Virus record (IMG/VR): IMGVR_UViG_2541047879_000001
Source of the DNA: a virus
Lineage: Duplodnaviria; Heunggongvirae; Uroviricota; Caudoviricetes
Length of the DNA: 64,000 nt
Direction: 5' to 3' (one strand)
Position numbers and translations under genes: made by a program
Part shown: one piece after another, positions 48,111 to 52,906 of the stretch
Layout: every line of letters begins with the position of its first letter
How positions within the stretch are numbered: the stretch's first letter is position 1
The notes under the pieces: model-generated
Database searches by the model: none
What the model was told of the DNA's origin: nothing
Seen by the model: only the letters and a program-made list of their open reading frames with translations

Positions 48111-48439
48111 ATTCTGAATTTGTTCGTGCAGAATCGGTGAACGTTCTCATCTGAGCGTTAAACGCCAATAATCGTTGATCTACATTGATCATTAATACAC
48201 CTTAATACCATTAGCGTCTTACTCCGTTATGAGAACAAACGCGAACTGACCTGCCCCCAGTATTAGTGACCTTCAGCTACGGTAACTTGTCCGCTTCGTG
48301 CCAGAAGCGGACATCCATAGAGAAATAAGCGATCAGTTCTTAAATTTGTTGTGATTTTTTGATTTTTTTGTATTCGCAAAGGGATTTGTGTTGGTTGTAT
48401 AATTACCTAATATTCATACAGTTGAATGGGAGATGTGGG

Positions 48440-49333
48440 ATGAAGTTCTCGTACAGACATGGTTTTGATCCTGAGTATAATAAAAAGCCGATACGGGAAG
48501 ATGCTCCAGAGTGGCTTCGCTCTTTATTTTTTGTAACTGTCCTCGATAATTTTTTGTACATTGATGGTGATAGCCGCATTACGAATGATGAGAACAAGCC
48601 GTTGGGTATTAAGGCTTTGATCGAGCGACTTTGCGCAGAGAATGGTCAAGAAACAGATCATGAGGATTTCGATTCATGGTACTGCTATGATGCTTTGAAA
48701 GCGCGTTTGCAACATATGCGTTGGTTTCAATTTTATGATGCTGTTGAGATTATCGGAGATCTATTAAGAAAAAGAGATGTAGAAAGAGGCCATACTTGGG
48801 GTAAGAAGGCATTAGAAGACATTACTTTTACATCATATCGTCAGAAATTGAACGAGTTATTCGCATCTCGAAATATTGACTGGAAAATGAATTCTGCTGG
48901 TAGGTTAGAAACACCACTACCAAATGAATTAGAACAAAAAATCGATGAAACTAACAACTTATTGCAAGACCAGTTTGAACCTGCAAGGAGGCACTATGTG
49001 AAAGCCCGGGCTTTTGCATTAGGTGCGCATAAGGATCCAGAAAATTCCATAAAAGAATCAATAAGTGCAATAGAAAGCATGTGTCGGACTTATTATCCTT
49101 CAGCCTCAACCTTGGGCGATGTATTAAAACTGATGAGAAAAGAAAACACTATCTCACCTATGCTTTTAACGGTGATAGAGAAATTTTACGCTTATACAAA
49201 TGCAGAGCCAGCAGTAAGACATGGTAGCAACAAGGTTTCTTCTGTCTTGGAATACGATGCTGAATTCGTGTTGCATATATCAGCAGCATTTATTAGAACA
49301 ATAATACAAAGAAAAGCTGTTTTGGATAACTAA
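48440..49333 (+). CDS. Uncharacterised protein (297 aa), no family recognised
   Basis: ATG with RBS gggag; -10-like tataat about 40 nt upstream; AT-rich; convergent with MBL-fold gene. Confidence 0.5.
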   Translation: MKFSYRHGFDPEYNKKPIREDAPEWLRSLFFVTVLDNFLYIDGDSRITNDENKPLGIKALIERLCAENGQETDHEDFDSWYCYDALKARLQHMRWFQFYDAVEIIGDLLRKRDVERGHTWGKKALEDITFTSYRQKLNELFASRNIDWKMNSAGRLETPLPNELEQKIDETNNLLQDQFEPARRHYVKARAFALGAHKDPENSIKESISAIESMCRTYYPSASTLGDVLKLMRKENTISPMLLTVIEKFYAYTNAEPAVRHGSNKVSSVLEYDAEFVLHISAAFIRTIIQRKAVLDN

Positions 49334-49419
49334 GTCAGACTTACAGCCAACTGACTGTCTCTTATTATTCAAAACATAATAATGTTAGGTCCGCTTATCG
49401 CACATCAGGGACAACCATA

Positions 49420-49450
49420 CTCAAATCTCCCACATTGCAGGAGATTTGAG
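49420..49450. terminator. Perfect 11-bp inverted repeat between convergent genes
   Basis: ctcaaatctcc-cacattgca-ggagatttgag between stop of 48440-49333 and stop of 49574-50800. Confidence 0.4.
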
Positions 49451-49573
49451 TGTGAACACGTCACCGTGGAACAAAGACTGTATCATCGGTCAAAAAAGAC
49501 CTGGTTATCTAGCAAAAACTTTTAACATACCAACAAACTTAATTTATTTAAATGCTATTAATACAACTAATGT

Positions 49574-50800
49574 TTAAAATATATATTTTATATCAACCCA
49601 ATTTTTAGCATTATTGTCAACTAAAGTAACGCTATGTCCATGACTTGAATTTATAGCATCGATTACTGATTGTGATGGGTGTCCATGTGAATGACCATCC
49701 GACTGAGCTATAAACAAAACATTATCAAAATCCGCAATTATTTTTTGATTGAAATTTAATTCCGAACCATGATGAGGTAATGTCATCACCCTTACCGTTT
49801 TAATCACTTTTGAATAGAATTCAGCCCATTTATTATAATACAATGATGTATTAAGCTTTGAGTCACCTGTTAATAAAACAGATCTAATTCCTTTATCTCT
49901 ATCAAAGAGAAAATGTCGCTCAACCCGACTATTTCTAAAACTAAACCACTCACGAGAAGGCTCATTAACAATTTTCATCTCAGCTTCTTGATTATTAATA
50001 ATCAAGAGATTGATTGATATTACATTATGATCGCCAGCAAGTTTTAAATAACACTCGCGTAATTTCTTTCTTTCCCCCGTGCTAGTTAATATTTTAAGCA
50101 TTTTTTTCTTACTTAACTCAGTAAAACCATTTTCTATTAACTGCTGACTGAAAATTTCAATTTTCTTACGTGAACGGGGCGGTATCCAAGAAATAAATGA
50201 CATTAGTGTATCAGTTTTGTTTTCCCCAATCCTTTTAACCAACCAACGGTTACATTCAACATCTCCTTTGGAGTCAGATATTTTCATTGGTAAGCTTACA
50301 GCGCTATCCTTAATGTTTTCACTATTAAATATAGGAGGGTCAAAATTATCATCAATATCACAGGGGTAAAGCAAAGATATATCTGCCTCAGGCAACCTTG
50401 ATTTTATCCATTTGACAGGATCAATGAGAAATTCCATAAAAAGACCTGACGTAGAATTAGAGCATAGCTCCGATGCAATTAAGTAATAGCTATCATGGAT
50501 ATCTAGGTATGGTAATACAACCTTGCGTATTTTGTTATCTACAAGCTGACATAAATGGTCAAATCCATTTATATGGTCTGAATCCAAATGAGAGATGTAT
50601 ACCACATCAATATATTTCTCATCAATATTAAAGAGAGATTTAGCCACATCCATCTCCCTACGCAACGCATTTAATTGGTCACTTCCGCAGTCATACACAT
50701 AACTGTAAAGCAAACTACCATCCCTTCCCCTCAGTCCGCCTAAACTAAATCCACCCTGGCCAACGGGAAACAATCTTTTATGAAATACTTCTCCGCTCAT
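49574..50800 (-). CDS. Metallo-beta-lactamase-fold hydrolase, ComEC-type MBL signature (putative nuclease)
   Basis: HxHxDH-like motif YISHLDSDHINGFDH, later LPHHGS and DGHSHGHPS metal-ligand motifs; RBS aaggat before ATG; AT-rich. Confidence 0.7.
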   Translation of the reverse strand: MSGEVFHKRLFPVGQGGFSLGGLRGRDGSLLYSYVYDCGSDQLNALRREMDVAKSLFNIDEKYIDVVYISHLDSDHINGFDHLCQLVDNKIRKVVLPYLDIHDSYYLIASELCSNSTSGLFMEFLIDPVKWIKSRLPEADISLLYPCDIDDNFDPPIFNSENIKDSAVSLPMKISDSKGDVECNRWLVKRIGENKTDTLMSFISWIPPRSRKKIEIFSQQLIENGFTELSKKKMLKILTSTGERKKLRECYLKLAGDHNVISINLLIINNQEAEMKIVNEPSREWFSFRNSRVERHFLFDRDKGIRSVLLTGDSKLNTSLYYNKWAEFYSKVIKTVRVMTLPHHGSELNFNQKIIADFDNVLFIAQSDGHSHGHPSQSVIDAINSSHGHSVTLVDNNAKNWVDIKYIF

Positions 50801-51514
50801 ATATCCTTCTTACACCCTAACGTGATCATAAAATTGTCTTAAAGTTAAGTTTAAAGCTAAAAAGTCACAGCTCATTCCAACTCGTGAGCAATAGGAATGT
50901 ATATTCAATCAGTTAGAGGATCAACCCGATTTTCTCTAATGAGATTTCGCAACGCAGTACGAACAGCAGCTACTTCTGCCATCTCATTAACAACCACACT
51001 GGACTACAATCCCCTAAGTTCTACAGACTGTAACCATATCCTCTTCACAGAAATAATCTGATTAATGCTGAAGGTCATCTTTCTCGACGCGAATGTATGA
51101 CATAACAACCTCAGTTAATTATCTTTCGATAGAAAAATACCTTCACAAAAGGTTTAAGCAACCCATCACAAGACAACACGCTAAGCTTGCCTTGTAAGCG
51201 TCCTGCTTAACCGAACAGTTCGCTTTCAGAGGATCTCCGGAGAACAGCTCCGATGCCTTATAAGGCCAATGCTCGCTCCTCGCTCACTGCGGACCTAAGG
51301 TTTGGTCAGCTTGTTCGCACTCTGCCAAAAGCGGGAGTTACTCCCATTCGGTGTTAATCAATGTAGAGCAGATCAATCAACGACAAAGAAAATGAGAGGC
51401 ATATCACTACTCATATGAAAATTATTGTAGTAAAGTGAGCCGTAAGTTCATCATTTATAAATCATATAGCATATATGTTATATCAATTTTAATTTAAATG
51501 GCAGAATAATTACC

Positions 51515-52219
51515 ATGGAAAAAATTAAAACTCCTTGTCCATATTGTAAAGGTGAAAAAAATTGCCACATAATAGGCCATAAAAAAAGAGAATGGAGTGA
51601 GGATGATGGGGGCAACTATTTTTGGGCTGAAAGTGAATACAAATTATTAGAGTGTATGGGGTGCGACGGAATATTTACATATATTAAATCCCGTCACAGT
51701 GAAGATTACGACATTGAAAGAGATGAGTCAGGCTATGATTGTATGGTATATAACTATCATATATCAACATATCCCACTCAAGAGCAAGAAGAGATTAGAC
51801 CAACTTGGTTTGGTGAGACATTAAACAAAGATCGTCAGCTGTATGTAATAATGAACGAAATGTACATCGCATTTCAAAATAAATCATTCATTTTAGCGGC
51901 GATTGGACTTAGAACTATTTTTGACAGAACAGTTGAGGTTCTAAATATTCATCCAGGATATACATTAGGCCAGAAGGTTGACATTCTTAAAGAGGAAGGT
52001 TTTATTGGGGAAACAGAAAGGAGCCAACTTAAAATTGTAACCGAAGCTGGCAACTCAGCTGCACACAGGACATGGGCACCGAACGAAACTGAATTTAAAT
52101 CGCTTTTGGTAATTATAGAAAATTTTGTAATGCGAACAATACTAAAAAATGAGGATATATTTAAGATTACAGAAAAATTACCTGCGAAATATCCAAGACC
52201 TCCCAAAAAGCAAGAATAA
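51515..52219 (+). CDS. Zinc-ribbon plus DUF4145-like (HEPN-like?) protein; candidate abortive-infection effector
   Basis: N-terminal CPYC...(36 aa)...CMGC four-Cys ribbon; C-terminal AAIGLRTIFDRTVEVL...AGNSAAHRTW region recalled as DUF4145-like; weak RBS. Confidence 0.5.
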   Translation: MEKIKTPCPYCKGEKNCHIIGHKKREWSEDDGGNYFWAESEYKLLECMGCDGIFTYIKSRHSEDYDIERDESGYDCMVYNYHISTYPTQEQEEIRPTWFGETLNKDRQLYVIMNEMYIAFQNKSFILAAIGLRTIFDRTVEVLNIHPGYTLGQKVDILKEEGFIGETERSQLKIVTEAGNSAAHRTWAPNETEFKSLLVIIENFVMRTILKNEDIFKITEKLPAKYPRPPKKQE

Positions 52220-52657
52220 TGTACGTAAGTGTAAATAGAGCTAAGAGATTATATATTGACTCTGGTTATCTCTATTAGCACATGCTTTTTGTAATGCCTT
52301 AACTGATTATTTAAACTCCTGTCAGCTTTTCGCTCAAAGCGGACTAAAGTGTTGGCTTGTGACTGACTTAGCGCATTTAAGGAAGTGGTGGTGGTGACGG
52401 GGTGTTGTGTCCCATTTCCACAGAATAAATCAGAGAAACTATAGCGGCTGTAATGGCAATCTATGGTCTTGCTATTGCTCTTATGGATCACCTTTCTGAT
52501 TGATTTCATATTGGCGAGGTAACGGGAGTTAAGTAGAATAGCTGCGGGTGCTTGAGGCTGTCTGCCTCGGGCATGAACACCAAAGGCAGATAGAGAAAAG
52601 CCCCAGTTAACATTACGCGTCCGGCAAGACGCTTAACATTAATCTGAGGCCACATCT

Positions 52658-52906
52658 ATGCTTTGCATACGTAGATTAGCCTCTTACCGACCAAAAGGTC
52701 AAGGAGAAGCAGGCTATGAAGCAGCAAAAGGCGATGTTAATCACCCTGATCGTCATCTGTTTAACCGTTATAGTGACGGTACTGGTAACGAGGAAAGACC
52801 TCTGCGAGGTACGAATCCGAACCGACCAGACGGAGGTCGCTGTCTTCACAGCTTACGAACTTGGGGAGTAAGAGGACCAGCGGGGAGAAATCCCCGCAAC
52901 CTCTGA
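52658..52906 (+). CDS. Possible mok-like overlapping reading frame of the hok locus
   Basis: ORF starting 58 nt upstream of hok and overlapping it in another frame, as in hok/sok/mok loci; positional inference. Confidence 0.3.
   Translation: MLCIRRLASYRPKGQGEAGYEAAKGDVNHPDRHLFNRYSDGTGNEERPLRGTNPNRPDGGRCLHSLRTWGVRGPAGRNPRNL
52716..52871 (+). CDS. hok: Hok-family membrane toxin (HokD/RelF-like), type I toxin
   Basis: 51-aa ORF MKQQKAMLITLIVICLTVIVTVLVTRKDLCEVRIRTDQTEVAVFTAYELGE found by reading (below track cutoff). Confidence 0.8.
   Translation: MKQQKAMLITLIVICLTVIVTVLVTRKDLCEVRIRTDQTEVAVFTAYELGE

Follow-up and report, generated by a model that had tools for sequence, protein, structure and literature searches.

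The described proteins closest to the two genes considered here are AbiJ-family Abi proteins and proteins with a metallo-beta-lactamase (MBL) fold. In proteins that combine an AbiJ N-terminal domain (AbiJ-NTD) with a HEPN domain, the N-terminal domain has been proposed to act as a sensor of phage components that holds back a suicidal HEPN RNase (Anantharaman et al. 2013, PMC3710099), and SadR, an Abi_C HEPN protein, was shown to be a phage-defence RNase with the motif RNEYGDAH (PMC13590631). The described MBL proteins include the nuclease domain of ComEC/Rec2 and several proteins of defence-island or mobile-element settings that carry ComEC-like C-terminal MBL motifs, namely Avs1a (AVAST type 1), LmuA variants (Lamassu), the reverse transcriptase-associated MBL protein (RTasMBL, of DRT), PDC-M48B and 6A-MBL. 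Systems that contain such MBL proteins are named by their partners, which are the STAND NTPase of Avs, the SMC-like LmuB and the reverse transcriptase. We compared with these systems two convergent genes, gene A (297 amino acids, aa) and gene B (408 aa), found in a stretch of 64,000 nucleotides of viral DNA (IMG/VR record IMGVR_UViG_2541047879_000001, Caudoviricetes; hereafter the window). A first-pass annotation, made from the sequence alone, had proposed that the pair forms an undescribed defence module. The genes do lie tail-to-tail as it described (Table 1), with a spacer of 240 bp; they are, however, separate single-gene cassettes and not a functional pair.

Relatives of the MBL gene were sampled at 59 loci, one genome per species (about 22-46 % identity), and at six close-relative loci (82-90 %). 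Relatives of gene A were sampled at loci of 54-86 % identity and at 80 metagenome loci, and seven viral-contig loci were added from matches to both genes. Every locus was scanned with profile hidden Markov models (HMMs) of both families; the counts include some duplicate contexts. A gene A relative was present in 99 loci and an MBL relative in 75, and the two families were found together in only six, all of them repeats of this E. coli arrangement (both genes scoring identically against the profiles, and a 100 % match to the window proteins where scored). When tblastn and the profile HMMs were applied to the 59 genome loci and six close-homologue loci of the MBL gene, a gene A relative was found in none of them. 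Among independent lineages, the partner was present in 0 of about 69 other MBL loci and in 0 of about 93 other gene A loci. The co-occurrence check that the first-pass annotation itself suggested thus showed that the families are not recurrent neighbours in independent lineages (99 and 75 loci), and its proposed module has no co-occurrence beyond this one prophage arrangement. The pair is present in 10 of 5,426 complete E. coli genomes, each time at 99.8-99.9 % identity, and this uniformity suggests that it arose once and recently.

At the loci of its closest relatives, each gene is found without the other. A different prophage has a gene A that is 97 % identical and is followed by a 578-aa open reading frame (ORF), a 323-aa ORF and an intact recombinase gene, with no MBL or dGTPase gene nearby. 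The settings in which MBL genes of 83-90 % identity were found without gene A are an Enterobacter prophage, at its end, a Proteus prophage, where the gene lies between Q and the lysis genes, and a CP4-57-like island; a 39 %-identical homologue adjoins ogr at the end of a Serratia P2-like prophage. Genomes of isolated phages lack the MBL gene and contain only remote, partial matches to gene A.

The nucleotide sequence of the region also separates the two genes. Comparison by blastn divided it into three abutting blocks, the gene A cassette, a short middle block and the MBL cassette (Table 1). Over exactly its own span the gene A cassette has 84 % identity with a Dickeya locus of a conjugative element (L069), and it is 97 % identical to the loci L101 and L181 over 48289-49401. 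The MBL cassette, again in its exact span, is 84-90 % identical to sequences at an Enterobacter prophage end, in a Proteus lambdoid prophage, in a CP4-57-like island and in an IMG/VR contig. The genes therefore share neither a mobile block, the three mosaic blocks being sharp-edged, nor a transcription unit, since convergent genes do not form an operon.

The middle block consists of about 65 bp of 5' untranslated region (UTR) and about 17 codons of a 200-aa tyrosine recombinase, the start codon of which has changed from ATG to GTG; tblastn recovers residues 1-30 only. This recombinase gene (annotated 'site-specific integrase') is present in about 790 of the 5,426 complete E. coli genomes. The perfect 11-bp inverted repeat that the first-pass annotation reported at 49420-49450 is indeed there, and its core extends to arms of 15 nt with 93 % complementarity. 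The hairpin (-27 kcal/mol, z = -4.8) exceeds chance, as none of 200 shuffled sequences folded equally well. The repeat stands directly before the start codon of the recombinase, with the GGAG ribosome-binding site in its right arm, and it is invariant across four unrelated contexts. An intrinsic (bidirectional) terminator was considered and rejected, because a T-run is present on neither strand and the terminator scan does not report the hairpin. Since the repeat lies within the relic block and has no T-run, it is an inherited piece of the truncated recombinase gene, belonging to its 5' UTR. It is not a separating feature, as the first-pass annotation had described it, and did not arise between the two genes as a device. 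A related viral contig has gene A and the intact recombinase gene 3.5 kb apart, with other cargo between them.

Intact copies of the recombinase gene were observed at L078:5066-5668, L079:5071-5673 and L181:9500-9775. The protein (for example WP_023147793.1) is a catalytic domain only, of about FimB/FimE size, and lies inside cargo slots of prophages and islands, where the cargo to either side changes from case to case (PD-T7-1, a restriction endonuclease, gene A, or a kinase together with an FRG protein). One homologue, 57 % identical (L029:6546-7130), is located 0.9 kb from an MBL-family gene in an alphaproteobacterium. This small recombinase may shuffle or invert cargo.

Gene A is annotated as a hypothetical protein in RefSeq, and the first-pass annotation could match it to no family. 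It does match Pfam AbiJ_NTD4 at residues 1-170 (34.4 bits, just at the gathering score of 34), a domain that is matched by 39 of 39 gene A homologues (best E-value 5e-18). It also matches the PADLOC model PDC-S32 (PDLC04997; E-value 1.6e-33) almost end to end, with residues 1-291 on profile positions 7-280 of 285, and it shares with that candidate both the full-length match and the single-gene form. By these profile matches gene A is a member of a catalogued candidate family and not of a new one; our literature search found no paper naming PDC-S32. The C-terminal region has a HEPN fold. Gene A thus resembles the AbiJ-family Abi proteins (Lactococcus AbiJ, S. aureus SadR) in carrying an AbiJ-NTD and a C-terminal four-helix HEPN domain on one polypeptide, and differs in its motif, E-P-x-x-R-H-G with adjacent R and H in place of the R-N-x5-H of SadR. 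Invariant residues of gene A are R260-H261, E201, N202, K205 and E206. Across the PDC-S32 family the adjacent R-H is likewise invariant and stands in place of R-polar-x3-5-H, and a second invariant cluster is formed by D199-x-E201-N202-x-I204-K205-E206.

The dN/dS ratio of gene A (0.13) indicates purifying selection. No conserved partner gene was found in the loci of its homologues, and the family occurs as a stand-alone gene on mobile elements. By analogy with the AbiJ-type proteins, gene A is likely a sensor-coupled suicidal HEPN RNase that aborts infection. Its N-terminal domain would sense a phage product and keep the HEPN domain in check, and on infection the HEPN dimer would cleave RNA, leading to abortive infection.

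Gene B is annotated as 'MBL fold metallo-hydrolase' in RefSeq. The metal-binding signature and the ComEC-type assignment proposed by the first-pass annotation held up: the motifs are SHLDSDH (residues 70-76), LPHHGS (341-346) and HSHGHP (370-375), the metal-ligand positions H71, D75, H76, D313, H343, H344 and H374 are invariant in 54 homologues, and ComEC is the closest protein by both sequence and fold. When the family profile was compared with solved structures, ComEC MBL domains came out on top (E-value 1.6e-8), and a structure model of gene B (pLDDT 84.8) was best matched by a ComEC MBL domain with both fold methods (Foldseek E-value 7.8e-10). With ComEC/Rec2 the protein shares the HxDxDH variant of motif 2 as well as HHGS and GHP. 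It differs in being soluble, in lacking the OB-fold and the polytopic membrane competence domain of the full ComEC architecture, in having an extra insert, and in occurring on prophages and islands instead of competence loci. The alignment to the ComEC domain takes in about 245 of its 408 residues, and the rest includes the inserted region; the whole-protein models TIGR00361 (15.8 bits, cutoff 190) and PRK11539 (9.6 bits, cutoff 969) match in the MBL part only.

In PADLOC and NCBIfam, gene B matches Avs1a, LmuA, RTasMBL, PDC-M48B and 6A-MBL (PADLOC E-values 1e-6 to 1e-14 over residues of about 306-400). It was not assigned to Avs1a, LmuA, RTasMBL, 6A-MBL or PDC-M48, as these matches are partial and reach 24-51 bits against NCBIfam cutoffs of 220-420 (for example, 31 bits against 420 for Avs1a and 23.7 against 220 for 6A-MBL). 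No STAND NTPase, SMC-like or reverse transcriptase gene is present within the window island. Neither PADLOC 2.0 nor NCBIfam 20.0 has a model that the stand-alone ComEC-like form matches above threshold, the papers searched do not describe it, and the literature search found no tested stand-alone MBL defence. The family is large, uniform and unnamed, with 2,258 clusters at 50 % identity (E-value ≤ 1e-30), nearly all of about 400 aa; gene B itself is under purifying selection (dN/dS 0.18-0.34). From the ComEC-type core and the genomic context, it is most likely a metal-dependent nuclease that acts alone. It would be a cytoplasmic binuclear-metal phosphodiesterase that cleaves nucleic acid, with DNA, the substrate of the ComEC domain, as the most likely target, and would by itself act as a phage-restricting or toxic nuclease. 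The inserted region may provide recognition of a substrate or a trigger.

No neighbour gene is conserved across the MBL family. The nearest ORFs of 34 distant members include PDC-S11, a PD-Lambda-3_A-like PD-(D/E)xK protein, Ppl/LmuB-like ATPases, prokaryotic Argonaute (pAgo) with SIR2, type I restriction subunit or restriction-modification genes, and integrases. We also observed that distant MBL clades are flanked by different PD-(D/E)xK-type proteins, of 371 aa (L005, L006, L007, L008, L012 and L056), 159 aa (L019, L020, L022, L023 and L039) or 562 aa (L004, L083 and L055). PDC-S11 (PADLOC E-value 3e-151) and the PD-Lambda-3_A-like protein (E-value 3.5e-29) are among these neighbours. Where the latter is present, a Ppl-like PHP-ABC ATPase of about 900 aa is often found on the other side of the MBL gene, and in Gilliamella the 562-aa protein abuts the MBL gene. 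In the distant clades with a PD-(D/E)xK neighbour the two genes may form a real system, although the MBL gene stands alone in the enterobacterial clade.

A leader of about 500 bp (50801-51296) travels with gene B, and all of the close cassettes conserve it. The reading of this leader as a structured RNA or a regulatory element was rejected, as Rfam gave nothing and the RNAalifold covariation term was only -0.12 kcal/mol. It diverges (Jukes-Cantor distance 0.14-0.29) nearly as much as the synonymous sites of the gene (0.24-0.46), which is near neutral. The leader proved to be the relic of an ORF of 65 aa, in which codon 14 is TAA in four of four close cassettes; the window copy has an additional TAG and a frameshift. 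The family of this ORF (34 clusters) is confined to Enterobacterales; intact copies were observed at L080:5097-5294, at L081:5010-5207 and in L087-L099, and they mark a variable cargo slot in CP4-57/YfjJ-type and tRNA-Sec islands. We also considered whether the 65-aa ORF is the true partner of the MBL gene. However, intact copies precede unrelated genes in either orientation (a GIY-YIG/T5orf172 nuclease, an FRG protein and a 441-aa protein of no known function), and the ORF is therefore island backbone and not a partner. The MBL cassette probably came from a CP4-57-type or tRNA-Sec island, with the relic carried along.

The stretch belongs to an E. coli Rac-like lambdoid prophage that carries recET, ralR, kilR, sieB, ydaT/ydaV and trkG. 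Its accessory island is flanked by a DUF977 gene of the replication module and by hok/sok, and the DUF977..hok/sok slot holds here the dGTPase, PDC-S32, MBL and DUF4145 genes (Table 1). The G+C content of the island (48.2-52.4 kb) is 0.33-0.40, against about 0.50 in the flanking replication genes, so that the low-G+C genes near a dGTPase and hok noted by the first-pass annotation are as it described them. The flank from about 52439 onward is common to 1,520 genomes. In strain UK_Dog_Liverpool the DUF977..hokD slot contains PD-T7-1 (L078:3399-4748, minus strand; PADLOC E-value 7e-157) and the intact small recombinase gene in place of the window genes, which confirms the slot as a defence-cargo hotspot. 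The locus is of the same kind as other slots of temperate phages whose variable cargo includes defence genes (Rac/Qin-like DUF977..hok/sok), with nothing unusual about it; the embedded 200-aa recombinase is the one feature that we could not place, and no literature search was aimed at it.

Table 1 Features of the accessory island and its right border (window coordinates)
Feature	Coordinates	Strand	Description
Anti-phage dGTPase	46641..48029	+	First cargo gene of the island; NCBIfam NF041026 antiphage_dGTPase 560 bits (cutoff 400); PADLOC dGTPase E-value 8.7e-145
Gene A cassette	48321..49389	+	Mosaic block (blastn): gene, 119 bp upstream and 56 bp downstream
Gene A coding sequence, 297 aa	48440..49333	+	ATG at 48440; AbiJ-NTD4 (about residues 1-170) and C-terminal HEPN; PADLOC candidate PDC-S32
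Tyrosine recombinase gene relic, 117 bp	49385..49501	+	Matches 'site-specific integrase' genes at their 5' end with 91-93 % identity
Inverted repeat/hairpin	49416..49454		Perfect 11-bp core, 49420-49430 / 49440-49450
MBL cassette	49501..51296	-	Mosaic block (blastn): gene, 73 bp downstream and about 500 bp upstream
Gene B coding sequence, 408 aa	49574..50800	-	Soluble ComEC-type MBL-fold hydrolase; inserted alpha/beta region of about 140 residues
Pseudogene relic of the 65-aa island ORF	50905..51103	-	Upstream of the MBL gene; tblastn against intact copies L080/L081
Zinc-ribbon and DUF4145 (HEPN-clan) protein	51515..52219	+	Stand-alone cargo gene; Pfam DUF4145 E-value 3.2e-11; PHROG 1305 E-value 4.9e-29
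sok RNA and hokD toxin	52546..52871	+	Conserved right border of the cargo slot; Rfam sok 105 bits; hokD annotated

The DUF4145 gene is present in 12 complete E. coli genomes. Its longer ORF adds an N-terminal CxxC...CxxC zinc ribbon, which the RefSeq start at 51742 omits. The protein has no PADLOC match, and the gene is probably another stand-alone defence-type cargo gene. It was rejected as a partner of the MBL gene, being adjacent to an MBL gene in just one other locus (L030, a Rhizobium plasmid) and in a different orientation. Insertion sequences were observed at the locus in two strains. In strain 1919D3 (L003:8273-9501) an IS3 element lies 240 bp past the dGTPase stop codon, gene A is cut after codon 44 and the lysis genes follow directly; in strain PRO_A-1462-6M-A_ESBL (hit H5) an IS1 element lies inside the gene A/gene B pair.

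We consider it probable that the locus consists of independent stacked cassettes, gene A being a sensor-coupled HEPN RNase and gene B a lone ComEC-type nuclease. Recombination would stack independent single-gene cassettes in the DUF977..hok/sok slot of the Rac-like prophage, and the gene A and gene B cassettes would have been joined through the 117-bp recombinase relic, the source of the inverted repeat. Several points weigh against this explanation. The PDC systems are 145 explicitly untested candidates obtained by 'guilt by embedding' (bioRxiv 10.1101/2024.01.29.577857). Gene A is without the canonical HEPN motif R-polar-x3-5-H: with R260 and H261 adjacent, T253/N254 occupy the usual position of the arginine (-8/-7 from the histidine). 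It also differs from the AbiJ family in having no Pfam Abi_C match and no PADLOC AbiJ match at E ≤ 1, and just 4 of its 39 relatives match Abi_C, below threshold (21.9 bits in the relative that was re-scanned, threshold 24). Because of the variant motif and these missing matches, RNase activity of gene A is not assured. More than one substrate is conceivable for gene B: after ComEC, its best structural relatives are phosphorylcholine esterases, with RNase Z and RNase J next. The survey of MBL neighbourhoods had no matched control, so that the defence context of the family is suggestive only. Finally, the physical adjacency in 10 genomes leaves some room for the two genes to cooperate functionally in this prophage.

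Such cooperation would be expected if the convergent genes were one undescribed defence or toxin/immunity module, with the MBL protein as effector and the 297-aa protein as sensor or immunity partner. The genes are adjacent and both defence-like, and the arrangement is kept at its near-complete identity in the ten complete E. coli genomes, as well as in some metagenome and IMG/VR contigs. This reading is nevertheless largely refuted, and we give it almost no probability, in view of the lack of co-occurrence in independent lineages, the closest relatives of each gene that are without the other, the recombinase relic and sharp block boundaries between them, the convergent transcription, and the effector domain (HEPN) that gene A already has of its own. 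What stands of the first-pass proposal is that both genes lie in a prophage cargo island and that each is defence-like separately; the joint module does not. It is unlikely that gene B is a phosphodiesterase of small molecules or signals (for example, a prophage counter-defence against cyclic-nucleotide signals like the MBL-fold Apyc1) or a phosphocholine-type esterase. The gene is carried by prophages and some of its relatives show weak Pfam Anti-Pycsar_Apyc1 matches, but these sub-threshold matches (14-21 bits, cutoff 50) cover the generic N-terminal MBL motif only, and an Apyc1-like anti-defence enzyme was rejected. ComEC clearly matches better than any other protein by sequence, by fold and by its motifs (HxDxDH, HHGS and GHP), and the MBL components in PADLOC that share the C-terminal motif are defence proteins (LmuA, Avs1a, RTasMBL and PDC-M48B). 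Furthermore, gene B has no signal peptide, as read directly from its sequence, and is therefore unlikely to act on the cell wall. Improbable, and more so than the phosphodiesterase, is that one or both genes are selfish cargo of the addiction or toxin type, or hitch-hikers in decay, and play no part against phage in this prophage. The hok/sok genes of the island, the pseudogene upstream of the MBL gene and the IS3 and IS1 elements that disrupt gene A or the pair in some strains would agree with it; against it, both ORFs are intact and under purifying selection (dN/dS 0.13-0.34), the catalytic residues are invariant, and both families are broad and found in defence contexts.

Beyond the stacked cassettes, it is possible, and we put this forward tentatively, that the stand-alone ComEC-like MBL proteins of about 400 aa are an undescribed, large (at least 2,258 clusters at 50 % identity) and taxonomically broad family of single-gene anti-phage nucleases and, separately, that PDC-S32 is a working Abi RNase with an adjacent R-H dyad. 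Members of the MBL family recur in prophage cargo slots and beside PD-(D/E)xK-type defence proteins. Phage would then be restricted by direct metal-dependent cleavage of nucleic acid with a DNA-degrading core of the competence type.

With the independent-cassette reading the proposed two-gene system falls away, and two single-gene candidates remain that can be tested separately. Apparent pairs of this kind would originate from sharp-edged cargo cassettes shuffled into one prophage slot, here beside what is left of a small recombinase gene. Should the ComEC-like MBL family prove to be a defence nuclease, a widespread single-gene system would be added and the competence-type nuclease fold would be tied to immunity; if PDC-S32 is active, the AbiJ-type HEPN domain would work with a rearranged catalytic motif.

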